Of a stretch of 64,000 nucleotides of DNA, positions 17,684 through 38,731 are shown piece by piece. Position 1 is the stretch's first letter. Each line of letters begins with the position of its first letter. Position numbers and translations under genes: made by a program. The notes beneath the pieces are model-generated. The model saw nothing but the letters and a program-made list of their open reading frames with translations, ran no database searches and was not told where the DNA came from. The DNA comes from Sandaracinaceae bacterium (GTDB lineage Bacteria; Myxococcota_A; Polyangia; Polyangiales; Sandaracinaceae): the NCBI GenBank assembly GCA_044220955.1, contig JBGAQA010000004.1, positions 32,001 through 96,000 of the forward strand, in the 5' to 3' direction.

Positions 17684-19560
17684 GCACCCACGATCGCATC
17701 GGCCGCGATCCGCTCATCGGCCGGACCATCGGCGGTCGCTATCGCCTCATCCAGCGCCTCGGAACCGGCGGGATGTCGAGCGTCTACCTCGCGCGCCACG
17801 TGCTGATCGATCGCCTCATGGCGATCAAGACGCTGCGCCGCGACCTCGCGAGCGACCCCGTGCAGCGCGACCGCTTCATCCGGGAGGCGCGCGCCGTCAA
17901 CCGCATCAACCACGCGAACATCGTCGAGATCACCGACTTCGGCGAGAGCGAAGACGGTCTGGTGTACCTGGTGATGGAGTACATCGCGGGCGAGTCGCTG
18001 CTCAAGGCGATGGGCGCCGGGCCCTTCGCGCCGCTGCGCGCCCTCGACATCGCCGAGCAGGCGGGCAGCGCGCTCGCGCGGGCCCATCAGATGGGCGTGA
18101 TCCACCGGGATCTCAAGCCGGAGAACATGATCCTGGTGGAGCTGCGCGACCGGAAGGACTTCCTCAAGATCCTCGACTTCGGGATCGCCAAGATCACCGA
18201 CGCGCCGTCGCTGACGGGCTCTCAGCAGATCTTCGGCACGCCGGGCTACATCGCGCCCGAGTACATCCAGTCGACGGCGATCGACGGGCGCGCGGACCTC
18301 TACTCGCTCGGTGTGATCCTCTACGAGCTCGTCACCGGCGCGCTGCCCTTCGACTACGAGTACCCCGGCGACCTGCTCGTGAAGCACGTGACGGAGACGC
18401 CCTTCAAGCCGAGCGCGCGCAAGGCCGACGTCCCGGCGCCCATGGAGGCGTTCATCCTCCGATGCCTTCAGAAGAACCCCGACGAGCGATTCCGGGACGC
18501 GTTCCACTTCCTCGACGAGCTCCGCGCGACGCGCGAGCTGCTCGGCCCGGCGCTCTCCTGGGGCGGGCTGAACGAGGCGGACGTCCCGGTCGAAGAGGAC
18601 GACGTACCCGTCCCGATCGGCACGCCACGCCGGCCCATGTCGGCCGAGGCGCGCACGCCGCGCGACGAGGCTCGGGGCCACGACAGCACGCCGACCACCG
18701 AGCAGCTCATCGACGTGCCCGACGAGGCGCGCCGCAGCGACACCACGCTGCCGCCGCCGCCGGACCCGGGCGAGTACCCGAGCGACGGCTCGAGCCGGCC
18801 CGTGACGGCGGAGTACGTTCGTCCGGCGATCCCCGTCGCGCCCAACGACGACCTCGAGGTCGAGATCGAGGTCGAGGAGCCCGCAGGACCGCTCGAGATC
18901 CAGGAGCAGGGCGTCTCCACGGGCCTCTCGGGGGCGCGTCGGTGGCGTGAGCGCTTCGTGGCGATCCGCGCCTGCGTCGAGGAGCTCTCGGGCGGCGCGA
19001 TGCCGCCCGACGAGATCGTGCGCGCGATGGCCCTCGCCGAGCGCTCGATCGAGCAGCTCGAGGAGTCGGTGCGCAGCGCCCGGATGCACCAGCAGGCGGT
19101 CGAGGCGCTCTCCGAGCGCGCGCGCGACTTCCGCGCGACGCTCGGCAAGACGATCGACGAGCTCGCCGCCGAGCTCAGCAAGCGGCGCGGGGAGCTCACG
19201 CTGCTCGCCCAGCGACGGAGCGATCTCGCCGAGCGGCGCGACGCCGCACGGCGCGGCGTGAAGCTCGGCGGCACCACCGAGGGGCAGGCCGACGCGCTGC
19301 TCTGGGAGCTCGCGGCCGTCGAGGAGGAGCTGCGTCAGAAGGGCGGTGCGTGCGACGAGGTCGAGGCGCACCTCGGCGAGCTCCGCGCGCGCCTCGAGCG
19401 CGAGAACGAAGAGCTCGAGATCGAGCTGAGCGTGCATACCCACGTGCTCGACCAGGAGATGGTGCGCCTCTGGCCGCTCGCGACCGCGCTCCGCGATCCC
19501 CTGCAGGAGGTCGAGGACTGGGTGCGCGCGCGATGGGAAGAGAGCCCGCCAGCCTCGTGA
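17680..19560 (+). CDS. Ser/Thr protein kinase with C-terminal coiled coil
   Basis: LGTGGMSSV, AIK, HRDLKPEN, DFG, GTPGYIAPE; no TM segment. Confidence 0.95.
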   Translation: MSTHDRIGRDPLIGRTIGGRYRLIQRLGTGGMSSVYLARHVLIDRLMAIKTLRRDLASDPVQRDRFIREARAVNRINHANIVEITDFGESEDGLVYLVMEYIAGESLLKAMGAGPFAPLRALDIAEQAGSALARAHQMGVIHRDLKPENMILVELRDRKDFLKILDFGIAKITDAPSLTGSQQIFGTPGYIAPEYIQSTAIDGRADLYSLGVILYELVTGALPFDYEYPGDLLVKHVTETPFKPSARKADVPAPMEAFILRCLQKNPDERFRDAFHFLDELRATRELLGPALSWGGLNEADVPVEEDDVPVPIGTPRRPMSAEARTPRDEARGHDSTPTTEQLIDVPDEARRSDTTLPPPPDPGEYPSDGSSRPVTAEYVRPAIPVAPNDDLEVEIEVEEPAGPLEIQEQGVSTGLSGARRWRERFVAIRACVEELSGGAMPPDEIVRAMALAERSIEQLEESVRSARMHQQAVEALSERARDFRATLGKTIDELAAELSKRRGELTLLAQRRSDLAERRDAARRGVKLGGTTEGQADALLWELAAVEEELRQKGGACDEVEAHLGELRARLERENEELEIELSVHTHVLDQEMVRLWPLATALRDPLQEVEDWVRARWEESPPAS

Positions 19561-19584
19561 GGTCGAGCGGCGCGCTCGCCGCGG

Positions 19585-20865
19585 TCACCGCACGCTGGGC
19601 AGCATCGTCGGTGGGGCGACCGCCGCGGGCGCCGTCGTGAACTCGACGAAGCGCCGGATCTCGTCGGCGGCCTCCGGCCCCGGCGCGGCGAACTCGAACC
19701 CGATGGCCTGCCGGTGGCGCGCCTCGCGCTTCCAGCGCGCGACCGCGGACAGCGCGACCACGCGGCCGCTCACCGGCAGTCCCACGCGCAGCGTCACGCG
19801 CGCGCCCAGCTCGACGGGGTCGGCCAGCAGGGCCAGCAGCCCCCCCTCGCTGAGATCGGCGGTCTGCCCGTCGCGGACCGCGCCGTCGGCCGCCACCACG
19901 CGGATCGGCGCGACGTAGGGCGCGCGCGCGAAGTGGCGCCGCGGCCTGCCGGTCTCGACCGAGGGCGGGGGCGCCGCCTCGAGCACCCCGAGCGCTCCGC
20001 CGCGGATGCCGGTCGCCTCCACCAGCTCGCTCGCCATCTCCGTCGCGCTCGCGTGGCGGTCGGCCGGATCGCGCTGCAAGGCCCGCTTCATCCACCGGTC
20101 CAGCGCGTCGCAGGGACGCCCGACGGCGCTCGAGAGAGACGGGAGCGGCGATCCGGCGACGAGCGCGCGCACCAGCGCGCGCGTGCCGCCCGCGATCGGC
20201 AGCACGCCCATCAAGCACTCGTAGAACACGAGCGCGAGGGCGAACAGGTCGGCCCGGCTGTCCACGACGTCCGCGAGCAGCTGCTCGGGCGCCATGTAGT
20301 CGAGGGTCCCGATGCGGTCGCCCATGCGCGTCAGCTTCGCCGGGGCCTCGGCCGTCGAGACGAACGCGGCGACGCCGAAGTCGATCAGCTTCACCTGCTC
20401 GCGACCCGCGCGCGACCTGGTGACGAAGATGTTGGAGGGCTTGACGTCGCGATGGACCAGGCCGGCGCGGTGCACCGTCTCCAGCGCGTCGCAGACCTCG
20501 AGCGTGAGCGCCACGGTGCTCTCGAGCGGCAGCTTGGCCCGGGCGATGAGCACGGCGTCGAGCGCGCGACCGTCGAGCATCTCGAGCGCGACGTAGGGAA
20601 TCGCCCCGTCCGTGCCGGCGTCGAGCACGTCGACCACGTGCGGGCTCCGAGCGAGCTCCAGGGCGCGCGCCTCGCGCAGCAGGCGCTCGCCCAGCATGGG
20701 CGCCTCGACCAGGCTCTGATCGACGGTCTTCAGCGCGACGCGCCGGCCGAGGTGAACGTGCTCCGCCTCGAGGACGACGGCCATGCCTCCGCGCGCGATC
20801 TCGCGCCGGACGCGGAACCGATGATCGATCATCTCGCCAGGCTGGGGAACGCGGGGCTCAGGCAC
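19585..20865 (-). CDS. Ser/Thr protein kinase with C-terminal PilZ domain
   Basis: HRDVKPSN, DFG, GTLDYMAPE; PilZ motifs RRHFAR (RxxxR) and DLSEGG (DxSxxG). Confidence 0.92.
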   Translation of the reverse strand: MPEPRVPQPGEMIDHRFRVRREIARGGMAVVLEAEHVHLGRRVALKTVDQSLVEAPMLGERLLREARALELARSPHVVDVLDAGTDGAIPYVALEMLDGRALDAVLIARAKLPLESTVALTLEVCDALETVHRAGLVHRDVKPSNIFVTRSRAGREQVKLIDFGVAAFVSTAEAPAKLTRMGDRIGTLDYMAPEQLLADVVDSRADLFALALVFYECLMGVLPIAGGTRALVRALVAGSPLPSLSSAVGRPCDALDRWMKRALQRDPADRHASATEMASELVEATGIRGGALGVLEAAPPPSVETGRPRRHFARAPYVAPIRVVAADGAVRDGQTADLSEGGLLALLADPVELGARVTLRVGLPVSGRVVALSAVARWKREARHRQAIGFEFAAPGPEAADEIRRFVEFTTAPAAVAPPTMLPSVR

Positions 20866-22024
20866 GGGTCACTCCTTGGGCTGGCGTTCCTTGTCGCACG
20901 TAGGGCCCGGGCTTGGCGATCAGATAGCCCTGGACGAGATCGGCGCCGAGGTCCCGCACGCACGCCAGCTCGCCCTCCGTCTCGATGCCCTCGGCCACGA
21001 CCAGCATACCGAGGTCGTGGGCGAGGGTGCAGGTCGATCCGACGACGCGCCTGCGCACCGGATCCGTGTCCACGCCGCGCGTCAGGGACATGTCGATCTT
21101 GACCACGTCGGGCGAGATCCGCGCGAAGTAGCTGAGCCCCGCGTACCCGGCCCCGAGATCGTCGATCGCGATCCGGTATCGCAGCTTGCGCAGCGCCTCG
21201 ATCCGCGACTCCACCTCGCCGACCCCCTCGAGCGACGCCCGCTCCGTGATCTCGAGCACCACGTTGGCGGCGTGCTCGCTGAGCGGCGCGGACGGGTCGT
21301 AGAGCTGCGGGTCCGCGAGGTCGCTCGAGTGGAGGTTCACGAAGAACGCGTGGTCGAAGGGCCGTGCCTCGCGCGCCAGGCCCGCGATCATCCCGCGGAG
21401 CTGGCGCCCGAGCGCGTGGAGCCGACCGAGCAGCTCGGCTGCGCCGAGGACGGCGGGCGGGTTGGGCAGGCTCGGCTCCGACGAGCGCATCAGCGCCTCG
21501 TACCCCGACACCCTGCGTGTCGTGACGGAGACGATGGGCTGGTAGACGAGCCGAAGGCTCGACGACGCGCGCTGGAACGCCGCGTCGAGCGCCTCCCGCT
21601 CGTCGCGGCTCGGCCCGGACGCCCGGGCGCGCGTGAGGCGCCCCCACTGCACGGCCTCGCCTACCACCTCGCGGACGCGCGCCGCGTCGACCGGCTTGGC
21701 GAGGTAGCGCACCACACCCAGCTCCATCGCGCGCATCGCGTCCTCGACCTTCGGAGCGCCCGTCAGGAGCACGACCGGCACGTCCGGGTGGGTCCGGCGC
21801 AGGACCGCGAGCATCTCGAGGCCCGTCATCTCCGGCATCGAGACGTCCGAGACGATCGCGTCGACGTCCTTCATCGTCTCGAGCGCGCGAATGGCCGCCC
21901 CCGGTGACGTGAACGTCTCGACGCGGTGCCCGTGCGTCGCGAGCACGTCGGAGAGGGTCCTGGCGACCATCGGGTCGTCGTCGATCACCACCACGCGTGC
22001 GTCACTGCTCGCTCGATCATCCAT
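20858..22024 (-). CDS. Response regulator with EAL c-di-GMP phosphodiesterase domain
   Basis: REC (IDDD, SDVSMP, LAKP) followed by YQPIV, GYEALMR, FVN, EITE, IDDLGAGY, KID, AEGIE, QGY. Confidence 0.95.
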   Translation of the reverse strand: MDDRASSDARVVVIDDDPMVARTLSDVLATHGHRVETFTSPGAAIRALETMKDVDAIVSDVSMPEMTGLEMLAVLRRTHPDVPVVLLTGAPKVEDAMRAMELGVVRYLAKPVDAARVREVVGEAVQWGRLTRARASGPSRDEREALDAAFQRASSSLRLVYQPIVSVTTRRVSGYEALMRSSEPSLPNPPAVLGAAELLGRLHALGRQLRGMIAGLAREARPFDHAFFVNLHSSDLADPQLYDPSAPLSEHAANVVLEITERASLEGVGEVESRIEALRKLRYRIAIDDLGAGYAGLSYFARISPDVVKIDMSLTRGVDTDPVRRRVVGSTCTLAHDLGMLVVAEGIETEGELACVRDLGADLVQGYLIAKPGPYVRQGTPAQGVTRA

Positions 22025-24884
22025 GGTCGTTCCTCACTTCGTCGGGGCCATCGCCCTGGGGCGTCCACGCGCGGGACTGGATCAGAGCGCGGACGGCGCT
22101 CGCGTCGACCGGCTTCGGTAGCCGTGGGAATTGCGGGTCGATCCCGTCTCCGTCCCGGCTCGTGAGCAGCACCAGGCGGCTCGCGACCTCGGGTCGCCGC
22201 GCCAGCAGCCAGGGCCACCCGCCGCCCGTCCGCGAGTCACCCGCGCGCGCCTCGCAGAGCACGAGGTCGAAGCGCTCGCCGTCCTCGAGGCGTGCCCACG
22301 CCGACTCGGCCGCGTCGGTCACGACGACCTCGTGGTCGCCGCGCAGCGCTCTCGCGATGCCGTGCCTCACGAGTGGATCCCGATCCACGACCAGCAGGCG
22401 TCGTCGTCGAGCGCTCGGCGGGCTCGGGCTCGAGACCCGCGGCGGCTCGGCGCCGAGGGGTGCTCGCGCGAGCCACACGGTGAACGTCGTCCCCGCTCCG
22501 AGCGTCGACTCGCATTCGATCGTGCCGCCCGCGTCGGCGACGATGCGCTGGCTGATCGAGAGCCCGAGTCCCGTCCCCGTGCCCACCGGCTTCGTGGTGA
22601 AGAAGGGCGTGAACACGCGGCGCAGCGTGTCGGGGGTCATGCCAGGGCCGTCGTCGCAGATCGTGATCTGGGCCCCGCCGCTGCGGCCGGAGCTCGCCCG
22701 CACCCGGATCTCGCCGTGGCGTCCCGTCTCGGCGATCGCCTGCGCCGCGTTGACGATGAGGTTGACGAAGACCTGCACGAGCCGGCTCTCGGAGCCCATC
22801 GCGATCGGGACGTCCTCGATCGTGGTGTGCACCGTGGCGACCGCGCGCGTCGCCGCGTGCGAGATGCGCAGCGCCGCGTCGAGCGCGTGGCTCACGTCCA
22901 CCGGGACGATCTCGTCCCGGGGCGCCTCGCGTGAGAGCGTGCGGAGGTCGGCGACGATGGTGCGCACGCGTCGTGCGGCATCCAGCGCGGTGCGCAGGCG
23001 CCCGGCCCCCTTGCCGGTCTGCCCGATGTCCTCGAGCGCGAGCTCGATCTCGGCGACGACGGTGGTCATGGGGTTGTTGATCTCGTGCGCGATGCCGGCG
23101 GCGAGCACGCCGACGCTCGCGAGACGATCGTTGGTGATCTGCCTGACCTGTGCCTCGCGCTCCTGCGTCACGTCGCGGAGCACGGCCACGGCGCCCGCGA
23201 TCTCGCCCGCGTCGCCCTCCACGGGACGCGAGGTGACGGCGACCCAGCGCCGCTGGTTGCCCTCCGCGCGCGTGGAGATGACGCCGTCGGCGGGCTCGCC
23301 GCCGAGCGCTCTGGCCATGCTCAGATCTTGCCAGCCGCACGTCGTGACCTGACCGTCGAGACGGAGGTCGAGCCGCTCTGGCCACGCCGGTCCGGGGAGC
23401 TCCCCGATCTGCGCGACCAGCTCCCGCGCGGCCTCGTTCGCGCGGGTCAGCTTCGCGTTCCGGTCGAGCACGAGGATCGGATCCCCGATCGCATCGAGGA
23501 TCGACTCGAGCAGGTGCGCGCGCGCACGCTCGGTCTGCGAGACGTTCTCGAGCTGCTGGAACGTGCGCGCGAGCGCCAGCACGAGCGCGAGCTGCCCAGC
23601 CACGACCTCTGCGAAGTCGACGCGCTGGTCGTCGAGCGCCTCGGTGGCGTGCAGCACGATGGCGCCCAGCAGCTCGTCGCGGTGGACGACGGGCACCACG
23701 ACCGCCTCGCCCCCTTCGATGCCCACGCTGGCGCTGGTCACGCGGAGCGGAGTCCGCAGGTCCGCGCTGGCGGCCAGCTGCGCCATGAGCTGCTCGGCGG
23801 AGCTCTCCACGTCGGTGCGCGCCTCCCCGATGCTGCGGCGCACCCAGCGCGAGCCGCTCCGCACGACCACTCCGCCCCAGGCGATGCCGCCCAAGTCGAG
23901 ACACGCGTGCAGCGCGGTGTCGACGGCGCGCTCGACGTCGCCGGTCTCGGCCAGGACGCTCGTGAGACCTCCCAGCACCGCGAGCCGCGCCGAGAGCGCG
24001 GCGGTGCGCTGCGCGAGCACGGCGTTGCGCGAGAGCTGGCGATCGAGCTGGCGGGCCAAGCGCCCGGCGTGGTCGGGCGCGCCCTCGGCCGACGGCGGCG
24101 CGGGACGATTCGACCGGACCCTGCCGTTCGCGATGCGCCGGAGCTCGGGGATGGTCTCGTGGACGTCGTGCGCGCGCGCGAGGTAGGCATCCGCGCCGAC
24201 GCGCTGGGCCAGTGCGCAGTCCTCGGGCTCGAGGTCGCTGTTCGTGAGCAGCACGACCGGGATCGCGGCGAGGTCGGGGTCGGCCCGCACGCGGCTACAG
24301 AGCTCGAAGCCGTCGATGCCGGGCATCAGGACGTCGCTGACGATGAGGTGGGGGTGGTGCTCGCGCGCGGCGTGCAGCGCGGCGTGTCCGTCGGACGCGC
24401 TGATCACCTCGAAGCCGGCCTGGCCGAGGCGCAGCGCCCACAGGCGTCGCTGCGTGGCGTCGTCGTCGACCAAGAGCAGCCGAGTGCCGCGCCCGGCCGG
24501 GGGCGCGAAGCTCGCCGAGGTCGGCAGGTGCGCCTTCACGGAGTTGACGAGGCGGGGTGGGTCGATCGGCTTGGCGATCACGTCGTCGAACCCGGCCGTC
24601 GCGAGGCGCGTCTCGTCCGCGCCGGTCACCAGCCCGGTGAAGGCGAGGATCGGCACGCCGGGACCGACGCTCGCCCGCAGGGGAGCGAGCAGATCGAAGC
24701 CGTTCCCGTCGGGAAGGAGCAGGTCGAGCAAGACCAGGTCGGGACGCGCCGCCTGCGCCTCGGGGATGGCGTCCTTCGCCCGGGCGGCCTCGCTCACCGC
24801 GAGGCCCTCGGCCTCCAGCAGCGAGCGAACGAGGCGCCGGGTCCACGCGTGGTCGTCGATCAGCAGCACGCGCGCCCGGCTCAC
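22017..24884 (-). CDS. Cytoplasmic hybrid histidine kinase (REC-REC-GAF-PAS-HisKA-HATPase-degenerate REC)
   Basis: Two N-terminal REC domains; AHEINNP H-box; NLIVNAAQ, DDGPG, FFTTK, GTGLGL. GTG start at 24884. Confidence 0.93.
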   Translation of the reverse strand: MSRARVLLIDDHAWTRRLVRSLLEAEGLAVSEAARAKDAIPEAQAARPDLVLLDLLLPDGNGFDLLAPLRASVGPGVPILAFTGLVTGADETRLATAGFDDVIAKPIDPPRLVNSVKAHLPTSASFAPPAGRGTRLLLVDDDATQRRLWALRLGQAGFEVISASDGHAALHAAREHHPHLIVSDVLMPGIDGFELCSRVRADPDLAAIPVVLLTNSDLEPEDCALAQRVGADAYLARAHDVHETIPELRRIANGRVRSNRPAPPSAEGAPDHAGRLARQLDRQLSRNAVLAQRTAALSARLAVLGGLTSVLAETGDVERAVDTALHACLDLGGIAWGGVVVRSGSRWVRRSIGEARTDVESSAEQLMAQLAASADLRTPLRVTSASVGIEGGEAVVVPVVHRDELLGAIVLHATEALDDQRVDFAEVVAGQLALVLALARTFQQLENVSQTERARAHLLESILDAIGDPILVLDRNAKLTRANEAARELVAQIGELPGPAWPERLDLRLDGQVTTCGWQDLSMARALGGEPADGVISTRAEGNQRRWVAVTSRPVEGDAGEIAGAVAVLRDVTQEREAQVRQITNDRLASVGVLAAGIAHEINNPMTTVVAEIELALEDIGQTGKGAGRLRTALDAARRVRTIVADLRTLSREAPRDEIVPVDVSHALDAALRISHAATRAVATVHTTIEDVPIAMGSESRLVQVFVNLIVNAAQAIAETGRHGEIRVRASSGRSGGAQITICDDGPGMTPDTLRRVFTPFFTTKPVGTGTGLGLSISQRIVADAGGTIECESTLGAGTTFTVWLARAPLGAEPPRVSSPSPPSARRRRLLVVDRDPLVRHGIARALRGDHEVVVTDAAESAWARLEDGERFDLVLCEARAGDSRTGGGWPWLLARRPEVASRLVLLTSRDGDGIDPQFPRLPKPVDASAVRALIQSRAWTPQGDGPDEVRNDHG

Positions 24885-24896
24885 GCGCAGGGTCGA

Positions 24897-24910
24897 GCAT
24901 GGCCCGTGCC
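24897..24910 (-). promoter_or_regulatory. sigma54 -24/-12 promoter of the hybrid kinase/EAL/kinase-PilZ operon
   Basis: Minus strand cGG-CACGGGCCAT-GCt with exact 10-nt spacing; predicted +1 ~24885, immediately before GTG 24884. Confidence 0.7.
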
Positions 24911-24950
24911 GCGCGGGACCGGTCGCCCACGACCCGAGCGGGCGCGGAGT

Positions 24951-24988
24951 TGGTCCATTTCGTCCACCCACCTGGCCGAAATGGACCA
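24951..24988. promoter_or_regulatory. Paired inverted 16-bp sites, putative enhancer (UAS) for a sigma54 activator
   Basis: TGGTCCATTTCGTCCA (24951-24966) and TGGCCGAAATGGACCA (24973-24988) are reverse complements at 15/16 positions; each is TGG-N10-CCA. Confidence 0.65.
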
Positions 24989-25049
24989 CCTCGCGCTGGC
25001 CCGAATGACACCGTCGGCCGGCACGCCTCGTGTAACACTGGCACCTGCG

Positions 25050-27353
25050 ATGAGCGCTGCCGTCCCGCGCATCCTGGTGGGCATCGTGCTCGCCGCGGCC
25101 TTGCTCGTCGCCAGCGCGCTCGCCGCATCGCGGGCGTACGGGACGGCCTTCCCTTCGCTCTTCGTCGATCCGTTCGGTGGCTTCTCCGCGGTGACGCTTC
25201 CGGCCTGGGGCGACGGGCTCGACGTGGAGATCGGCGCGCCCGTCACTCCGTCGGAGGACGGGGCGGACGCGAGCTCGCTGCCGGCGGAGCGCCTCTCGGC
25301 GGCTGCGGCCGCAGCCGAGGCGCGGGGCGACACTTCGCTCCGCGTCGTGATCGGCGCGCCTCCTGCGGCCCGGCAGGTATCACTTCCTCTGCGCCGGCTG
25401 GGCGCCGCCGAGATCCTCTGGCTCTACGGGCTCTACGTGCTCGCCGGCCTGCTGCTCCTGTGGTCGGGGATGATGGTCGGGGTCGTCGCGGGCGAGCAGG
25501 CGGGGGGGCGCGCGTACGTCGCGCTCGCGCTCGTCGCGTTCGTCTTCCTGGTGACGTTCCTCGACTACCACACCACTCGTTGGCTCGCGCCGCTGTTCGC
25601 GGCCGCCACCGTCGGGAACTCGGTCGCGCTCTTCGGCCTCGCCTGGCACTTCCCCGAGGCACCCGCGGTCGGTCCGACGGCCCGCCGGATCGCCGCGCTG
25701 GCGCTCTGGATCGGCGTCGCCTTCTCGATCGCCCTCGCGCTCTGCGTCGCGCTCGGGATCGACTTCCGAGCCGGCCGACGGCTCGCGGACCTCCTCGCCC
25801 CGTGCGCGCTCTTCGCGCCCATCGTCGGCGTGCTGCTGCGGATGTATCGACGCGACGCGCAGGGCGCGCGCAAGCAGGTCAGGTCGGCGGCGCTGGCGCT
25901 GCTCGCCGTGCCCATCACGCTCGCCGTGGCGTTCGCCGTGCTCCTGTCGCTGGGACGGCTCGCGGTGTTTCCCGCGGCGCTGCCGTTCGTATCGTTCGCG
26001 GTCCCGGGGGCGATCGGCACCGCCCTCATCCGTCACAACGCGCTCGGCGTTCGTCGGGTGGTCACCCAGCGCCTGCTCTACCCGCCGATCGGCCTGATCG
26101 CGTGCACTCTCGCTGCCGCCTTCGCGCAGCCCTTGTGGGCTCCCGGGACCTGGGTCCAGTCGATCGCGGTCGGCGCTTCGGTCGGCGTCGCGTTCTCGCT
26201 GCTCGCCGTGACCTTCGTCGCCCGCGTGTTCGGGCGCGCCACCGCGACGTTCCAGCCCACCCTCGAGGGGCTCGCCGACGAGGTCGCGGCGCTGCGCAGG
26301 CCCGATGCCATCCGTGGGCGCCTGGCGGAGCTGGTCCACCGGTGCCTCCCCTCGCGCGACGTGCGCAGCGTGTCGGCGAGCGAGCTCGACTCGCTTCGCT
26401 TGACCGAGATCGATCGCCGAAGGCTCGCGGCCGGCCAGACCGTCTGGACGGATCCGGCACAGAGCGCGCCCGAGCCCTCGCTCGTCGCGCCGCTCCGGTT
26501 CGGTGGACAGGCGCTCGGCGCGCTGATCGTGTCGCCTCGCGCAGGGGACGGCTTGTTCACGGACGCCGAGATCCGCATGTTCCAGACGATGGTGAGCCTC
26601 GGCGCGCTCGCGCTCCACCACGCGGAGCTGCTGCGCGAGGTCGAGGAGCGGCGGGCGATCGAGGTGGCGGCGACGCGCGGCGACGGCCGACGCGCCGTCG
26701 ACGCCATCGCCGCCGAGATCGCGCACGAGCTCTCGTATCCCATCACCTTCTTCCGGCACACGCTCAACCAGGTGGCGGCCGGACGGCTGAGTCACGACAT
26801 CGTGGAGGTCGGCAAGGACGAGGTGGAGCGCCTCGAGCGCATGCTCGCCTGGGTCCGCAAGCTGCAGGTGCCGGTGCCGGAGGTGGGGCGGGTGCGCGTG
26901 CGCCTCGTGGTGGGTCACGCGCTCGTGCTGCTGCAGAGCGAGCTCGAAGCCCGGCACATCACCTGCGACGTGGACGTCCCCGCGGAGCTCGAGGTCGCGG
27001 CGGAGCAGGACGCCCTGCTCCAGCTGGTGGCGAATCTGCTCCGAAACGCCATCCGCGCGGCGCGATCCCGCGTCGGCGTCGCGATCCGGGACGAGCGAGG
27101 GCTGCCCGAGCTCGCGGTCTGGGACGACGGTCCGGGCGTCCCCGCGGATCTCGTCGAGCGGATCTTCGATCCGTCCTTCACCACGCAGAGCGACGTCGAG
27201 GGGCACGGGCTCGGCCTCGCGGTCGCCCAGCGCGTGGTCACGGGGTTCGGCTGGAGCATCGACGTGCGTCGCGAGGACCAACGAACGGTGTTCGCCGTCT
27301 CCATGAGGCAGCGCGGCGCGCGCGCCGACGTCCTCAAGCGGGTCGCGTCGTGA
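25050..27353 (+). CDS. Multi-TM sensor histidine kinase with GAF domain
   Basis: N-terminal TM, periplasmic loop, several TM helices, GAF-like segment, AHELSYP H-box, NLLRNA, DDGPG, GHGLGL. Confidence 0.9.
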   Translation: MSAAVPRILVGIVLAAALLVASALAASRAYGTAFPSLFVDPFGGFSAVTLPAWGDGLDVEIGAPVTPSEDGADASSLPAERLSAAAAAAEARGDTSLRVVIGAPPAARQVSLPLRRLGAAEILWLYGLYVLAGLLLLWSGMMVGVVAGEQAGGRAYVALALVAFVFLVTFLDYHTTRWLAPLFAAATVGNSVALFGLAWHFPEAPAVGPTARRIAALALWIGVAFSIALALCVALGIDFRAGRRLADLLAPCALFAPIVGVLLRMYRRDAQGARKQVRSAALALLAVPITLAVAFAVLLSLGRLAVFPAALPFVSFAVPGAIGTALIRHNALGVRRVVTQRLLYPPIGLIACTLAAAFAQPLWAPGTWVQSIAVGASVGVAFSLLAVTFVARVFGRATATFQPTLEGLADEVAALRRPDAIRGRLAELVHRCLPSRDVRSVSASELDSLRLTEIDRRRLAAGQTVWTDPAQSAPEPSLVAPLRFGGQALGALIVSPRAGDGLFTDAEIRMFQTMVSLGALALHHAELLREVEERRAIEVAATRGDGRRAVDAIAAEIAHELSYPITFFRHTLNQVAAGRLSHDIVEVGKDEVERLERMLAWVRKLQVPVPEVGRVRVRLVVGHALVLLQSELEARHITCDVDVPAELEVAAEQDALLQLVANLLRNAIRAARSRVGVAIRDERGLPELAVWDDGPGVPADLVERIFDPSFTTQSDVEGHGLGLAVAQRVVTGFGWSIDVRREDQRTVFAVSMRQRGARADVLKRVAS

Positions 27354-28726
27354 GCATCCTGGTCGTCGACGATCAGCGCACCGCGCGGGTGATCCTGCGG
27401 GACATCCTGGCCGACGAGGGGCTCGCGGTCCTCGAGGCGGAGAACGCAGCGGAGGCGCGCCGGCTCAGCGCGGAGCACGCGATCTCGCTCGCCTTCGTCG
27501 ACATCCGGCTCTCCAGCGATCCACGAGATCGCAGCGGGCTTGAGCTCGTACGCGAGCTGCGCGAGACCAGCGGCGCCTCGGTCGTCGTCGTCTCCGGGCT
27601 GCGAGAGACGCACGAGGTCCGCGCGGCCTTCCGCTTCGGAGCCGACGACTACCTGCTCAAGGACGAGATCGCCGAGGAGACGCTTCGCCCGATCGTCGCC
27701 CGCGTGCGCGAGCGCGCTCAGCTCCTCGCGGAGGTCCACGCGCTCCGAGCGCGGGTCTCGGGTCGTCCGCGCGAGGTCACGAGCATCGTCGGCACCTCGG
27801 CGCCGATCCGCGCGCTGCGCGAGCGGATCCGCCGCGTCGCCAGCTCCGCGCGCCCCGTCCTGGTGAGAGGCCCCTCGGGCTGCGGCAAGGAGCTGGTCGT
27901 CCGCGAGATCCACGCGCTCGGCCCGGCGCCGGACGCGCCGCTCTTCGACGTCAACTGCGCGGCCCTCCCGGAGTCGCTCGTCGAGTCCTACCTCTTCGGC
28001 CACGAGCGCGGCGCCTTCACGGGGGCCGATCGGCGCATGCCGGGTGCGTTCGGAGCCGTCGGAAGCGGCACGCTGTTCCTCGACGAGGTCGCGGAGCTGT
28101 CGCCGACGATGCAGGCGAAGCTCCTGCGCGTCCTGGAGTCGAACCGCTACCGAGCCATCGGCTCGACGCGCGACCAGTCCTTCACCGGACGTATCGTCGC
28201 CGCCACACACGCGGACCTCGAGGCGCAGGTGAAGGTGGGCCGCTTCCGGGAGGATCTCTATCACCGGCTCGACGTGCTCGTGGTCCGCGTGCCCCCGCTC
28301 GGCGCGCGCAGGGAGGACATCGCCTCGCTCGTCGCGCACTTCGCTCGGCAGCAGCCCCGCGTGCTCCGGTTCACCGAGGAGGCTCTCGGAGCGCTCGAGC
28401 GCGCCGAGTGGCCGGGCCACGTTCGACAGCTACGAAACGTGATCGATCGCCTGGCGGTGCTGCACGAGGACGACCCCATCACGGCTGACACGGTGCACGC
28501 CGAGCTCGGCGTCGTGGACGAGAGCCCTGAGCTCTCGACCTTGGCCCGCCTCGCGCTGGCGCGGCCCGGGCCCAACCGGCTCGAGGCGCTCGAGCGCGCG
28601 CTCATCGAGGAGGCCCTGCGCATGTCGCGCGGGAGCCACTCCGAAGCCGCGCGCCTTCTCGGCGTCCACCGAAAGCGCATCGCGCGCCGGGTCGGACGGA
28701 GCGAGTGGCCGACCGAAGCGGACTGA
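27350..28726 (+). CDS. sigma54-dependent response regulator (REC-AAA+-HTH, NtrC family)
   Basis: ILVVDD, FVDIRL; GPSGCGKE, GAFTGA, FLDE, FREDLYHRL, WPGHVRQL; C-terminal HTH. GTGA overlap with the kinase. Confidence 0.95.
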   Translation: MSILVVDDQRTARVILRDILADEGLAVLEAENAAEARRLSAEHAISLAFVDIRLSSDPRDRSGLELVRELRETSGASVVVVSGLRETHEVRAAFRFGADDYLLKDEIAEETLRPIVARVRERAQLLAEVHALRARVSGRPREVTSIVGTSAPIRALRERIRRVASSARPVLVRGPSGCGKELVVREIHALGPAPDAPLFDVNCAALPESLVESYLFGHERGAFTGADRRMPGAFGAVGSGTLFLDEVAELSPTMQAKLLRVLESNRYRAIGSTRDQSFTGRIVAATHADLEAQVKVGRFREDLYHRLDVLVVRVPPLGARREDIASLVAHFARQQPRVLRFTEEALGALERAEWPGHVRQLRNVIDRLAVLHEDDPITADTVHAELGVVDESPELSTLARLALARPGPNRLEALERALIEEALRMSRGSHSEAARLLGVHRKRIARRVGRSEWPTEAD

Positions 28727-28770
28727 GCGCCCCGGACGACGAGCGCTCACATGCGCGGGTGATGAGGGTT

Positions 28771-28784
28771 GGTGTGCGGAATGC
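28771..28784 (+). promoter_or_regulatory. sigma54 -24/-12 promoter of the cyclase/GNAT/UbiA operon
   Basis: ttGG-TGTGCGGAAT-GCa with 10-nt spacing; predicted +1 ~28796, ATG at 28799. Confidence 0.55.
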
Positions 28785-28798
28785 AAGGGGCCGCACCC

Positions 28799-29764
28799 AT
28801 GACCTCCACCCTCCGAACCTCCGAGCCCCTTCGTCTCCTCGAATCGACACGCGCGCGCGCGCGCCCCGCGCGAGCGATCGCGGCGTCGCTGCGCGCTGCG
28901 ATCGGCGCCTCGTGGTCTGCCCACGAGCGCGCCTTCCCGCTGCACCAGAGCGACTCCATCACCTTCGACCGCACCGAGCCCGTCGAGACCGAGTGCTTCT
29001 CGATCGCGACGATCCTCGATCTGTGCGGCCACCACGTGGACGCTCCGACGCGGCGCGCCGCGCAGCGGAGCCTGCTCGACGACCTCGCGCGCAGCGGCGA
29101 CCTCGTCCGCTTCTTCCGGTCCGAGCGCCTCCCTCCGGACGCCGACTGCACGGCCGTCGCCGCCCTCGCCTTGTGGGAGCTCGGCGCGCTCGACACGCGC
29201 CGCGCACGCTCGATCGCGTCGCGCTTGCTCGACCATCGCACGCGAGACGGCCGGATCTCGGTCTACTTCGACGACGAGGGGGAGCGCGCCGAGCGCGTCG
29301 ACGCCGTCGTGACGTGCAACGTCCTGCGCTTCGCGACCCAGGTCGGCATCGCCGAGCGCTCGGCGAGCGACGTCGAGCAGATCCGGGCGGCGCTCGGCAG
29401 CCCCACGCGGTACTACCCGGCCGACGTGCTGCTCTTCGCGGCGGCGCGGCTCGTCCACGCTCGCGCCGACCTCGCGCCCGCGCTCGCACCGATGCTGCGC
29501 GAGGCGCTCGCGGCGAGGCGCGCGTCCGAGGCGACGTCCCTGGAGCAGGCGTGCCGGGCCGCCGCGGCGTTCTACGCCGGGCTCGAGGCCGAGCACGTGC
29601 TCGAGCTCGCGCTTCCGCTGCGCGACGTGTCCCGGCCGTTGCGGCCGGAGCCGTTCTTCTCGCTGGGACGTCGTGCGTCGTACTTCGGATCGACGCCGCT
29701 CACGGCCGCGTTCCGACTTCACGCGATCACCCTCGGGGCCTCCGTCGGAGCGGGCCATGACTGA
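28799..29764 (+). CDS. Putative monodomain class II terpene cyclase (beta-domain)
   Basis: RFF...LPPDADCTAVA (DxDxT acid motif, 29138-29152), DGRISVYFD..RVDAVVTCNVL, TRYY, YFGSTPLTAA. This pattern matches the cyclase domain of HAD-fused drimenol-type cyclases. Sits in an operon with UbiA. Confidence 0.65.
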   Translation: MTSTLRTSEPLRLLESTRARARPARAIAASLRAAIGASWSAHERAFPLHQSDSITFDRTEPVETECFSIATILDLCGHHVDAPTRRAAQRSLLDDLARSGDLVRFFRSERLPPDADCTAVAALALWELGALDTRRARSIASRLLDHRTRDGRISVYFDDEGERAERVDAVVTCNVLRFATQVGIAERSASDVEQIRAALGSPTRYYPADVLLFAAARLVHARADLAPALAPMLREALAARRASEATSLEQACRAAAAFYAGLEAEHVLELALPLRDVSRPLRPEPFFSLGRRASYFGSTPLTAAFRLHAITLGASVGAGHD

Positions 29765-30893
29765 GCCCGTCGAGCACTTCCGGGGCGCTGCTGGAGCGGC
29801 GCGCCTCGAGGGCGATCGCCATGGGGCCCGCGGTCGCTACCTCGCGGCGCTCGTGCGCGGTCCGCTGCGCCAGTACGCCGACAACGTCGGAGACGTCCGG
29901 ATGGAGGTCGTCGCGGTCGGCGAGACGCTGGTGCCGATCCTGCTGAACGACGGTGGGGACACGGACTGCTACCTGACCTCTCCGATCGGCTACTACGTCC
30001 GCTACGTACGAGACGAGATCCCGCGTCTGCGACAGGACGCCTTCACGCGGGTCTTCGACAAGGTGATCGCGGGGCTCGAGCACCCGCTGCGCTGGTCGTC
30101 GTTCAATCGTGTCGCGTACGTGAATCACTGGCTCATGAGCACCTCGCCGCGCGTGCGCTTCGACCGCTCGAGCCTCGAGGCGCTCACGCGCCACCTCGAG
30201 CGCGAGTACCCGACGCACACCCTCGTGTTTCGCGGTCTGACGCGCGACGAGACGGAGCACTGCTCGAGCTTCGCGGCGGCGGGCTACGAGCTCGTGGTGA
30301 GCCGTCCGATCCACGTGTGGAGCAGCGATCGCCGGGTGGAGTCTCGCGACACGCGGCGCCAGCGCGTCTGCGACGCGCGCGCCGTCGAGCGCTTCGTCGT
30401 CGGACACGAGCCCTCCGCGCACGACCTCGACGCCATCCCGGCGCTCTATCGCAGGCTCTACGTGGAGAAGTACTCGCGGATGAACCCGGCGTACACGCGC
30501 GCGTACTTCGCGCACCTGCTCGACTCCGGCTGGGGCGCGGTGACGATGCTCCACTCGGACGGCGCGCTGGTCGGCTTCGTGACCCACGCGATCGACGCCG
30601 ACGGTGCGCTGCTCGGCCTGAGCGTGGGGCACGATCCGGCCGTCTCCCAGCGGGACCTGCCCGTCTACCGCGCGCTCGTCTCGACCCTCTTCCAGCGCGC
30701 CGAGCGCGAGCAGAGAGCGCTCTTCCTCAGCACCGGGGTGTCCGACTTCAAGCGGCGGCGCGGCGCGGTCGAGCTGCTCGAGTTCGACGCGGTGCGCGCG
30801 GCGCACGCGCCTTGGCCCGCGCGCGCGGCCTGGTGGACGGTCGGGAGCGCCTTCGATCTGGCGATCCAGAACATCGACACGAGGCAGGTATGA
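29757..30893 (+). CDS. GNAT-fold (Fem/Acetyltransf_6-like) protein
   Basis: YLTSPIGYYVRY, VNHWLMST, LYRRLYVEKYSRMNPAYT, STGVSDFKRRRGA; overlaps both neighbours. Confidence 0.7.
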   Translation: MTEPVEHFRGAAGAARLEGDRHGARGRYLAALVRGPLRQYADNVGDVRMEVVAVGETLVPILLNDGGDTDCYLTSPIGYYVRYVRDEIPRLRQDAFTRVFDKVIAGLEHPLRWSSFNRVAYVNHWLMSTSPRVRFDRSSLEALTRHLEREYPTHTLVFRGLTRDETEHCSSFAAAGYELVVSRPIHVWSSDRRVESRDTRRQRVCDARAVERFVVGHEPSAHDLDAIPALYRRLYVEKYSRMNPAYTRAYFAHLLDSGWGAVTMLHSDGALVGFVTHAIDADGALLGLSVGHDPAVSQRDLPVYRALVSTLFQRAEREQRALFLSTGVSDFKRRRGAVELLEFDAVRAAHAPWPARAAWWTVGSAFDLAIQNIDTRQV

Positions 30894-31780
30894 GCGCGCA
30901 CGCCAGCACGCTGCGCGTGGGCCTACGCGACGTGGTTCGCACGGCGCGCCTCCCCAAGATCGCGCCGGTGCCGCTGCTCGCGTGGAGCGGCTACGCGCTC
31001 CGCCACGGACGGGACGTCCTGCCGCTGGCCTGGGTCACGCTCGCGGTCGTCGCGGTCACGCTCCTGGTGACCCGCCTCAACGTGCTCACCGACGAGTCGC
31101 TCGACCTTGCGAGCCGCCCCGAGCTCGCGCGCGGCCTGCGGCGCAGCGCGCGGTTCGTCGTCGGCGCGAGCGTGGTCGAGGTCGCGCTGCTCTGCGTCGC
31201 GTTGCTCGCGGTGGACGGCGACGCTCGTCTCGCGCTCGTCGCGCTGCTCGCGTTCGGCGTGCTCTACTCGTTCAACTTCCTGTCGCCGCATCCGGTGCGC
31301 TCGCGCTGGAAGGCCCACTGGCTCGGCCACGCCGCGGCGTTCGTCGGGAGCTATGCCGCGCTCTGGGCCGCGGGAGCCGGCGCGGCCGGGCACGGCGGCG
31401 GGGCGCTCGTGCTGCTCGTGGCGCTCGCCACCGGCGTCGTCGACTACGCCGTGTACGTCGGCGAATGCGCGATCGACCACGACGAAGAGGCCTCCGCGGG
31501 CCTGCGCACGGCGGCGGCGCTGCTCGGCCCGCGCACGTCGTCCGTGCTCGCGCTCGTCCTGTTCGGCGCCGGTGCCTGCCTCCATGCCAGCTGGATCACC
31601 ACCGCGCTGGCCGCGGCGTTCGTGCCGCCGCTCGCGCTGCGAGGCACGTTCCTCGTGGCACTCGCCGCCGCGGAGCTCGGAGGCCACCGGGATCGCGCTC
31701 ACGCGCTGCGCTCGCGCGCGGCCGACGCCGTGTTCCTCGCGACGCGCCTCTGGACCTTCTTCGCGCTCGCGCTCGCCTGA
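30890..31780 (+). CDS. UbiA family membrane prenyltransferase
   Basis: Multiple TM helices; motif I RLNVLTDESLD (NxxxDxxxD), LYS, R.K, motif II IDHDEEASAGLRT. ATGA overlap. Confidence 0.8.
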   Translation: MSAHASTLRVGLRDVVRTARLPKIAPVPLLAWSGYALRHGRDVLPLAWVTLAVVAVTLLVTRLNVLTDESLDLASRPELARGLRRSARFVVGASVVEVALLCVALLAVDGDARLALVALLAFGVLYSFNFLSPHPVRSRWKAHWLGHAAAFVGSYAALWAAGAGAAGHGGGALVLLVALATGVVDYAVYVGECAIDHDEEASAGLRTAAALLGPRTSSVLALVLFGAGACLHASWITTALAAAFVPPLALRGTFLVALAAAELGGHRDRAHALRSRAADAVFLATRLWTFFALALA

Positions 31781-31786
31781 GCGTCG

Positions 31787-34910: not shown

Positions 34911-35512
34911 GAGCGCTGGATCAGCGACTCACCGTCGCCGCGCTCGGCCTCGCCGCGCTCGCCGGGGTGTGGGCGGCGACGCTCGCCCGGCCCGGCCACG
35001 GGCTGGCGCGCGGGACCGGGACGGTGGCGATCGTGCTGCTGCTCCTCGCGCTCGCGTCGAGCCCGGCCGCCCCGTGGCTCGCTCCTGCGCGCGCGGTGGC
35101 GCTGCGCGTGGGTCGCCGGCGCGTCGGGATCGCGGCCGCGCTGGTCGCGCTCGGGCACGCCTGCATCGCGCTGTCGAGCTACGTCTCGCCGCTCGTCCTG
35201 AGCCCGATCGCCGCCGTCCCGTGGCTGCGCCACGGGGCGCTGGCGCTCGGGATCCTGGCGGCGCTGCTGCTCACCTCGTTCGCGGCGGTCCAGCGAGCGC
35301 TCCGTGTGCGGGCCTGGTCCGCGCTGCACCGGCTGGTCTACGCGGCGGCCATCCTCGCGTCGCTGCACGCGCTCGGTGTCCCGTTCGGGTCGGGCCTTCC
35401 GGGGGCGGCGGCGCTGCTCGTCACGGCGCTCTCGCTCCTCGCTCGCCCGGCCTCTCGGCTCGCGCGACGTCGGCGCCCGCCGGCCGCGCCCGAGACGGGC
35501 GCCGACGGATGA
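34907..35512 (+). CDS. MsrQ-like ferric reductase-type heme-b membrane protein
   Basis: RRRVG.......H, LLLTS, WSALHRLVY...LH; GTGA overlap with the upstream gene. Confidence 0.8.
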   Translation: MRALDQRLTVAALGLAALAGVWAATLARPGHGLARGTGTVAIVLLLLALASSPAAPWLAPARAVALRVGRRRVGIAAALVALGHACIALSSYVSPLVLSPIAAVPWLRHGALALGILAALLLTSFAAVQRALRVRAWSALHRLVYAAAILASLHALGVPFGSGLPGAAALLVTALSLLARPASRLARRRRPPAAPETGADG

Positions 35513-38587: not shown

Positions 38588-38601
38588 GGGGGCCTCCCCA
38601 A

Positions 38602-38615
38602 GCAGCGGGCGTGCC
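38602..38615 (-). promoter_or_regulatory. Possible sigma54 -24/-12 element
   Basis: Minus strand cGG-CACGCCCGCT-GCt, 14 nt before ATG 38587. An SD-like GGGGAGG lies in between, so the call is ambiguous. Confidence 0.4.
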
Positions 38616-38731
38616 GGAATTGGCAGCGGGTTGATCCAGCGCAATTCGCGCCCTCGGGCCGCGCCAGCACGTGCCACCGGGCAACGGAGTGCACGGGGGT
38701 GTGCCCCGCGAGCACGCCCTTCGCGCTGGCG

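Follow-up and report, generated by a model that had tools for sequence, protein, structure and literature searches.

We analysed a window of 64,000 nucleotides from a Sandaracinaceae bacterium (GenBank assembly GCA_044220955.1, contig JBGAQA010000004.1, positions 32,001 to 96,000 of the forward strand), in which three co-directional open reading frames encode a class II terpene cyclase (P0001), a transferase of the GNAT fold (P0002) and a UbiA-family prenyltransferase (P0003). The window is mostly 73-75% GC, and the source genome is 7.5 Mb in size and 87.9% complete. The original prediction called these three overlapping genes a minimal meroterpenoid cluster. The genes lie as it described, with overlaps of 8 bp and then 4 bp (Table 1), but the name understates the unit: the trio is the 3' end of a five-gene run whose first two genes encode a membrane histidine kinase and, after it, a sigma54 activator, and it is one arm of an island whose kinase and regulator have their kin in ComQX-like cassettes. 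We propose, with a probability of about 0.4, that a cyclic terpenyl-aminoacyl small molecule made by the trio replaces a prenylated peptide as the ligand of this kinase.

From the genes, folds, residues, island, neighbourhood statistics and DNA motif described below, we infer the following chemistry and the link between ligand and receptor. First, D116 of the cyclase, aided by Y206, would very probably protonate the terminal alkene of farnesyl or geranylgeranyl diphosphate (FPP or GGPP) from housekeeping metabolism, giving a cyclic C15 or C20 diphosphate, which is perhaps monocyclic because the motif is DxDC. No polyprenyl synthase lies at the trio locus, as had been noted, but three are encoded elsewhere in the genome. 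Second, the UbiA enzyme would ionise the cyclic diphosphate and, within the membrane, attach the cyclic prenyl group to a small acceptor, a step that we consider likely. Third, the FemX-like P0002 would add an amino acid from aminoacyl-tRNA, building the acceptor or capping the product; to this step we give slightly less weight than to the second. Finally, the lipophilic terpenyl-aminoacyl product may be the ligand of the adjacent membrane kinase, and the phosphorylated sigma54 activator, bound at 24951-24988, may turn on the run of hybrid kinase, EAL and Ser/Thr kinase genes, and possibly its own run; both halves of this last step are tentative. That is, the island would be a signalling cassette complete in itself, with a non-ribosomal terpenoid module in the place that a peptide precursor and a ComQ/PalQ-like prenyltransferase hold in related cassettes. 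The fullest version of this proposal is rather unlikely as a whole. It holds that the kin family comprises quorum-sensing-like sigma54 cassettes of a myxobacterial type whose pheromones are prenylated, sometimes cyclised, ribosomal peptides, and that this lineage has kept receptor and enhancer, swapped the ribosomal pheromone for a cyclic terpenyl-amino acid mimic, and wired it to cyclic di-GMP and Ser/Thr kinase outputs on one island.

The link to signalling starts from the neighbours of related cyclases. When 301 genomes of the order were searched with a profile, the cyclase turned up at 13 places in 12 other genomes, none of them among 31 family members, and seven of the 13 adjoin orthologues of the kinase or the sigma54 regulator that lie upstream of the trio. 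For this reason, we searched with the sensor region of the kinase, and matches were obtained in 17 of the 301 order genomes and in at least 43 of 331 class genomes. All 17 order-level loci and nine new class-level loci with E below 1e-69 were tallied, and two kinase places in one genome (G112) were counted once. Thirty weaker class-level hits (E 1e-56 or worse), all without a prenyltransferase, were left out by a cut that was chosen after the score gap had been seen. These 26 loci are not independent of each other, and the counts are descriptive. A sigma54 regulator was present at 24 loci. A ComQ/PalQ-like prenyltransferase of the trans-isoprenyl diphosphate synthase (trans-IDS) fold, with the motifs DRVxDGQ and LQxxDDxxD, was also present at 24. 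A protein with a precursor-like tail, ending in (S/A/R)P(W/Y/F)...W/Y, was found at 22 and a class II cyclase unlike P0001 at six, several loci had S8 proteases or methyltransferases, and a GNAT gene was found at none of the 26. About 30 further proteins, 700-970 residues long (L141-L150, L152-L171), contain the membrane sensor region of the kinase without a prenyltransferase cassette; in them it is probably fused to other output domains.

The window kinase is a single copy in its genome and has 42-44% full-length identity to the kinases of two genomes (G152 and G012). It is nearest by similarity to the kinases of cyclase-bearing cassettes, and the tree leaves its placement among them unresolved. 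The window regulator is the sister of the regulator in the cyclase cassette of G152 (support 100/99). The orthologues of these two window proteins belong to ComQX-like cassettes of the presumed prenyl-peptide kind.

The kin loci contain a recurring cassette that resembles ComQX and PalQX (L058, L061, L059/L151, L057/L089, L062, L063/L099, L086-L097 and L132-L140). Its parts are a small precursor-like protein ending in (S/A)P(W/Y)...W/Y, an enzyme of the trans-IDS fold, an S8-like or clostripain-like protease or a methyltransferase, an optional class II cyclase, the membrane kinase, the sigma54 regulator and paired sites of the form TGGwC-N6-GkmCA. No account of this sigma54 cassette was found in the literature searched. 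ComQXPA of Bacillus and PalQ/PalX/PalP of Paenibacillus (PMC10853753, PMC13290415) likewise combine a trans-IDS-fold prenyltransferase, a small precursor with an aromatic end and a membrane histidine kinase. In contrast to these systems, the kin cassettes have a sigma54 activator as their output and contain additional enzymes, namely proteases (S8-like or clostripain-like), methyltransferases or class II cyclases. The present locus differs from ComQXPA and PalQXP in another way: kinase and cognate regulator are present, whereas the precursor and the IDS-like enzyme are absent. A class II beta domain was also seen at the C-terminus of some longer proteins (L065:6883-9070, L066:7024-9151 and L064:5670-7436), whose sequences resemble peptide prenyltransferase-cyclase fusions. 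Next to the protein at L065 are a precursor peptide of the Frankia type, an M50 peptidase, a cyclase of the adenylate/guanylate kind and an Acetyltransf_6 gene; the L064 protein matches polyprenyl synthase weakly.

Profiles built from the kin found neither a prenyltransferase (best E 1.1) nor a precursor in the 87.9% complete genome of this bacterium, and the tail pattern was absent on its contig, yet the paired enhancer-like motif of the kin family is retained. One aligned L092 protein, which is a periplasmic binding protein, was kept out of the prenyltransferase profile and remained in one alignment searched afterwards. The palindrome was first spotted by eye in upstream regions of the kin, and a 16-bp motif was then trained on 10 kin regions, some of which were picked after the sighting. 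The information content of the trained motif was 15.5 bits, versus 12.5-13.4 bits in six shuffles. The pair in the window scored 34.9 and was the best in the whole genome, the next scoring 23.7. Pairs 21-22 bp apart scored at least 28.8 in eight of the ten training loci, and seven of 16 held-out cassette loci exceeded 21.4, the maximum of 30 control loci.

The score of the canonical sigma54 site that faces the hybrid kinase was reached in one of 300 Markov simulations. Its distance from the enhancer pair is 39 bp, and at L058 and L061 the enhancer-promoter spacing is 41-42 bp ahead of the precursor gene. Sites as good as the weak one just before the cyclase number 12 in the window, and the enhancer motif has no match in 28300-28800. 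A sigma70 promoter and an intrinsic terminator were looked for, and neither was found. A short inverted repeat (TGAGCGC...GCGCTCA, 28725-28749) lies right after the stop codon of the regulator and could form a hairpin between regulator and cyclase.

The comparison with five congeners defines the island. Its flanks are joined in three of them, lying 15 bp apart in G151, 145 bp apart in G175 and about 730 bp apart, with one small gene between, in G143. In G131 the right flank is kept with other neighbours, and in G127 the flanks are on different contigs. Since the flanks join in three of five congeners, the sensor, the regulator, the enhancer, its predicted targets and the trio are one inserted unit. 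A 10-bp word common to both junctions was not counted as a target duplication, the DNA being 73% GC.

These data bear on the strongest alternative, which accepts the same chemistry and regards the product as a secondary metabolite or a membrane lipid cargo. The kinase and regulator would then be an orphan listener to the prenyl-peptides of other myxobacteria, the bacterium's own precursor and prenyltransferase having been lost or lying in the unassembled part of its genome. We consider this unlikely, at a level hardly below that of the fullest version of our proposal. The canonical sigma54 promoter drives the signalling run and not the synthases, as the alternative would have it. One kin locus with ample flanks (G203) also has no prenyltransferase within 18 kb, the genome is incomplete, and the trio is unique, the relatives of each gene lying in unrelated contexts. 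What the alternative needs is a coincidence, in which a prenyl-transfer module and a class II cyclase came to lie in one run with a kinase whose nearest kin adjoin the same kinds of enzymes; moreover, the whole set travels as one island.

We now turn to the enzymes. P0003 is, by its sequence, a divergent but recognisable UbiA-family transferase. All 30 of its ESM Atlas matches are UbiA clusters (score 0.94), and hydropathy gives six transmembrane segments. The Asp motifs noted in the original prediction are present, as N64-V-L-T-D68-x3-D72 and D196-x3-E200, but they are degenerate; the Asp-rich Mg-binding consensus of the family is NDXXDXXXD and DXXXD (PMC9835599). P0003 had no match among PDB sequences, and no homologue at E up to 0.001 in a word-indexed search or in the 31 family genomes.

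The partners of the cyclase family show what usually stands in the position of P0003. When 36 longer homologues of the cyclase were given to Pfam, 14 were fused to a class I synthase, eight to a HAD domain, one to a histidine phosphatase and one to a methyltransferase; 12 gave no match, and a UbiA fusion was found in none of the 36. A class I synthase was among the scanned neighbours at seven of 14 genome loci of the family. The order of cyclisation followed by transfer fits these data, because the partners mostly consume a cyclic diphosphate. A search of the present genome with PF19086 (class I synthase) gave no match, yet the control gave none either, so this search is uninformative. Stand-alone DxDC beta cyclases that adjoin or are fused to class I synthases, in either order, occur at L008, L010, L012, L013, L015, L017, L019 and L056 and in P0013, P0017, P0036 and others; judging from these sequences, they may form an unexplored two-step terpene route. 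In only one of the 14 loci (L018) does a UbiA gene lie directly downstream. This locus belongs to one of only two planctomycete-class genomes, among 301, that matched the cyclase, and in both the cyclase, a beta cyclase of the RYY type, adjoins a UbiA gene without a GNAT gene (L018:2428-4532 and L173:451-3686). At L173 the UbiA-like gene was recognised by its Asp motifs, and a P450-like gene is also present. Both pairs are candidate cyclise-then-transfer clusters. The L018 UbiA was rejected as an orthologue of P0003 for want of significant pairwise similarity, and thus the pairing at L018 is independent, not orthologous.

P0002 matches Pfam Acetyltransf_6 (E 1.8e-7), and its AlphaFold2 model (predicted local distance difference test score, pLDDT, 90.6) has a double-GNAT fold. 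In the VIA comparison of this model, FemX (7Z5Y; Z 17.1, root-mean-square deviation 3.9, 282 residues aligned) and Sbb17 (Z 17.1, 3.4, 253 aligned) ranked highest, FemX and the aminoacyl-tRNA-dependent synthases Sbb17/Sba18 together spanning Z 17.0-17.1. FemA and MprF followed at Z 13.3-15.2, and CoA-dependent tandem GNATs were at 13.9 or less. F331-K332 of P0002 is invariant in 14 rows, and it falls where K305 of FemX and F328/K329 of DhpH-C fall, an equivalence that comes from aligned ranges and not from residue-level superposition; K305 of FemX and the essential Phe/Lys of DhpH-C are described in PMC12945691. FemX, Sbb17/Sba18, DhpH-C and VlmA (PMC12945691) are thus similar to P0002 in the double-GNAT fold, the C-terminal Phe-Lys pair and a basic helix. 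Unlike these enzymes, P0002 is only 13-14% identical to them and belongs to an uncharacterised family, which is usually found in TIGR02304 clusters. A PDB search with the GNAT profile gave only two meaningless matches. The GNAT had been expected to add an acyl or an aminoacyl group; the model ranking upholds a GNAT-fold transferase and favours the second donor, so that P0002 is probably dependent on aminoacyl-tRNA rather than on acyl-CoA. No terpenoid role for FemX-type transferases turned up in the literature searched.

Homologues of P0002 were found in eight of 400 other genomes, and a relative at 74% identity exists. Of the eight loci, four adjoin KAS III, ATP-grasp or TIGR02304 genes, two adjoin DUF3419, and two have no informative neighbour. 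Adenylating enzymes, like KAS III, are among these neighbours. The clusters at L030, L031, L032 and L035 contain KAS III, ATP-grasp, metallo-hydrolase and TIGR02304 genes, and those at L033 and L036 lie beside DUF3419; the FemX-like fold suggests that these orphan clusters use aminoacyl-tRNA.

The UbiA and GNAT data also allow a different product. P0003 could act like a class I synthase, or displace the diphosphate without a foreign acceptor, giving a terpene alcohol that the FemX/MprF-like enzyme would O-aminoacylate to a signal or a membrane modifier. A class I synthase or phosphatase is the usual partner of the cyclase family, and the UbiA sits in that slot; UbiA-type terpene synthases exist (PMC9835599); the lipid-aminoacylating domains of MprF and A-PGS reach Z 13.3-15.0 against the P0002 model; and no acceptor pathway would be needed. 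However, P0003 has the prenyltransferase-like motifs N-x3-D-x3-D and D-x3-E and not the fungal N-x3-(G/A)-x3-D and QD-x2-D-x3-D. We therefore regard this alternative as improbable.

As judged from its sequence and its model, P0001 consists of a lone beta domain and is a class II cyclase of the AsDMS rather than the MstE type. The motifs named in the original prediction are all there (PDADCT at 113-118, VYFD..RVDAVVTCNVL at 155-176 and TRYY at 203-206), and its claim of a single domain holds as well, since neither Pfam nor the AlphaFold2 model shows a HAD or a second domain in the 321 residues. No local Pfam or NCBIfam profile matched P0001; a PF28380 tag is precomputed on a protein 99% identical to it. 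Among PDB sequences, phmmer matched drimenol synthase 9MHS (E 7.7e-14) and did not match MstE at E up to 10. The AlphaFold and Foldseek check that had been proposed recovered the class II (alpha/alpha)6 fold (pLDDT 93.6). It ranked AsDMS (9M7E/9MHS; TMq 0.77-0.79, E 5e-14 to 2e-13) above MstE (6SBB-6SBG; TMq 0.67-0.70, E 1e-4 to 4e-4).

A HMMER alignment places D331, D333 and Y427, the catalytic residues of AsDMS, on D114, D116 and Y206 of P0001; the DxD acid that had been postulated is thus D116. In a direct alignment, the diphosphate ligands Y373, R380, R425, Y426 and R513 of AsDMS correspond to Y156, R166, R204, Y205 and R291, and R378 has as its counterpart only R163, across a three-residue insertion, Arg being present there in 71% of the family. 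The roles of these residues come from mutagenesis (PMC12365925, with numbering 10 higher than that of PMC12232559). D114, D116, D168, N174, Y205 and Y206 are 91-99% conserved in 151 aligned rows, and with the match to 9MHS this shows that the motifs did not arise by chance. Because the catalytic and diphosphate-binding residues are kept, P0001 most likely acts first, on FPP or GGPP.

A profile-free HMMER library search gave 181 clusters of the cyclase family at E up to 0.001, many of them of about 300 residues; the word-indexed search had returned the cyclase and the UbiA queries alone and three relatives of the GNAT. The Cys after the acid occurs in 82 of 145 family rows, so DxDC is the norm of the family. 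The nearest relative is P0008 (57%), which has some of the odd substitutions of P0001, and in the FastTree analysis the two form a long branch sister to the AsDMS-type clade. The seven cassette cyclases form a separate clade without the RYY and Arg residues.

Comparison with known cyclases shows what P0001 has in common with each. AsDMS's TC-beta domain (PDB 9MHS, 9M7F) shares with it the fold (TM 0.79), the catalytic D/D/Y, the diphosphate ligands and aromatic cavity residues. In contrast to AsDMS and to the bifunctional HAD-TC-beta drimenol synthases, P0001 has no fused HAD phosphatase domain, and it has DADCT instead of DLDTT or DxDVT. A mono-beta enzyme of Sorangium cellulosum cyclises FPP and keeps the diphosphate, the release of the alcohol needing a phosphatase (bioRxiv 10.1101/2025.09.20.677545). 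The stand-alone architecture is therefore already published, and P0001 is another member. Unlike AsDMS and the Sorangium enzyme, it belongs to its own long-branch lineage with P0008 and is partnered with a UbiA and a FemX-like enzyme in a signalling island. Pzm1, also with a DXDC motif, makes monocyclofarnesyl diphosphate, which is passed to the prenyltransferase PzmP (PMC11776366). However, Pzm1 resembles beta-gamma didomain cyclases, and PzmP resembles the phenazine prenyltransferases PpzP/EpzP and has a known phenazine acceptor, whereas in the present trio the cyclase is one beta domain, the transferase is a membrane UbiA, and there is no acceptor pathway.

The original prediction left two orders open, and the one in which a pre-cyclised diphosphate is transferred fits the data. 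In the MstE-like order, P0003 would first attach a linear chain to an acceptor, either an aromatic compound or an amino acid, after which the cyclase would fold the tail and the GNAT would decorate the product. Like P0001, MstE merosterolic acid synthase is a monodomain class II cyclase with the same barrel, and such enzymes are known to act after prenylation (MstE; NctPC, ChrPC). The UbiA PlaT3 acts before cyclisation (PMC11317874), substrate binding by AsDMS has been likened to that of merosterolic acid synthase, three arginines are dispensable in AsDMS (PMC12365925), and the long branch that carries P0001 lies at the margin of the AsDMS-type clade. On the other hand, the MstE structures hold a prenylated dihydroxybenzoate, while P0001 keeps the diphosphate-binding set, including the ligands whose loss kills AsDMS (Y373, Y426 and probably R378). 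The seven cassette cyclases, which are presumed to act on prenylated peptides, are without this set, and the fold and the sequence of P0001 are nearer to AsDMS. This order is thus disfavoured, and we place it a little below the terpene alcohol. The idea that the phenalinolactone UbiA uses a pre-cyclised diphosphate is contradicted by PMC11317874, and a thallusin/ebo preprint proved to describe an unrelated system.

It is very improbable that the trio consists of unrelated or decaying passengers without a joint product, as the single occurrence, the lack of UbiA homologues and some missing consensus residues of the cyclase might suggest, because all frames are intact and translationally coupled with a host-like GC content at third codon positions (0.92-0.94), all catalytic residues are kept, and the cyclase and the GNAT have the close relatives described above.

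The coordinates of the features are collected in Table 1. The start of the hybrid kinase was set by the gene caller and by the beginning of the receiver domain. Outside the island, at 32757-35512 and 36728-38644, there are two cytochrome c peroxidase-like Pfam genes and a ferric reductase-like membrane gene; the first of the peroxidase-like pair is kept in all five congeners.

Table 1. Features of the island and its predicted regulatory sites (window coordinates).
Position	Strand	Feature	Evidence
19560..31786	.	12.2-kb island, eight genes in two divergent runs	flanks joined in congeners
19585..20865	-	Ser/Thr kinase with C-terminal PilZ domain, last gene of predicted activator target run	Pfam Pkinase E 5.6e-37, PilZ 2e-15
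20858..22024	-	receiver-EAL protein, cyclic di-GMP phosphodiesterase-like	Pfam EAL 4.2e-51, Response_reg 2.7e-26
22017..24869	-	hybrid histidine kinase (receivers, GAF, PAS, HisKA, HATPase), first gene behind canonical sigma54 site	Pfam
24896..24911	-	sigma54 -24/-12-like canonical site facing hybrid kinase	ad hoc score 13.7
24951..24988	.	paired palindromic enhancer-like sites TGGwC-N6-GkmCA, 22 bp apart, predicted sigma54 activator site	motif
25019..25034	+	imperfect sigma54-like site (perfect -24, GT at -12) facing kinase-to-UbiA run	by eye, not canonical, unscored
25050..27353	+	membrane sensor histidine kinase, about 9 transmembrane segments, GAF, HATPase	Pfam; kinship to ComQX-like cassette kinases
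27350..28726	+	NtrC-like sigma54 response regulator	Pfam Sigma54_activat 2.8e-57
28770..28785	+	weak sigma54-like site just before cyclase	score 12.4, p ~0.02
28799..29764	+	stand-alone class II terpene cyclase beta domain, AsDMS type, DxDC motif, 321 aa (P0001)	
29757..30893	+	double-GNAT transferase, FemX/Sbb17-like, 378 aa (P0002)	Pfam Acetyltransf_6 1.8e-7
30890..31780	+	divergent UbiA-family intramembrane prenyltransferase, 296 aa (P0003)	Pfam UbiA 5.5e-6, below cut-off

Several points weigh against the proposal that the trio supplies the ligand of the kinase. The trio was found once, here only, in the genomes and metagenome scans. No GNAT gene lies beside the other cyclase loci, no cyclase lies beside the eight other GNAT loci, and the other contexts of the GNAT homologues have no terpene link; this comparison did not extend to the surroundings of P0008 and P0005, which are the closest relatives. 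A metagenome scan with the GNAT alignment gave no locus, a scan with P0158 gave one short locus without a cyclase, and the cyclase, kinase and UbiA queries had no match in the 31 family genomes. Because the kin cyclases are a separate clade without the RYY and Arg residues, P0001 would be a replacement for a kin cassette cyclase and not its descendant. From gene content alone we infer that the kin cassettes produce prenylated peptides and detect them, and a precursor or prenyltransferase might be missed in a genome that is 87.9% complete. Since the canonical sigma54 site is directed away from the synthase genes, autoinduction of the synthases would depend on the imperfect site. As to the enzymes, P0003 scores 26.3 bits against the Pfam UbiA cut-off of 34.2, P0001 is without the family-consensus residues G202, F211, L271, G277 and W279, no acceptor pathway, aromatic or other, is encoded, and PlaT3 offers the precedent of a UbiA that works ahead of its cyclase.

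Cyclisation followed by transfer is already known. What appears to be new here is the FemX-like partner and the place in a ComQX-like sigma54 cassette; in a literature that covered few subscription papers, we found no published match for a FemX-like enzyme with a class II cyclase and a UbiA, or for this sigma54 setting. With three enzymes, the trio would lead to a terpene-amino acid hybrid that is probably new, and its combination of a class II cyclase and a UbiA with a transferase of the aminoacyl-tRNA type was not found elsewhere in the searches that we ran. Since the kin cassette has a sigma54 output and a ligand precursor, receptor, enhancer and promoter that can all be predicted, cell-cell signalling by diffusible molecules can be tested directly in these bacteria. 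Because genes for a cyclic terpene and amino-acid chemistry sit on an island beside a sensor whose relatives flank genes for lipid-tagged peptides, we think that in this bacterium a small-molecule signal may have taken the place of a peptide signal. If the trio does supply the ligand, this would be a natural case in which the receptor is kept while the signal synthase changes from ribosomal to non-ribosomal chemistry.

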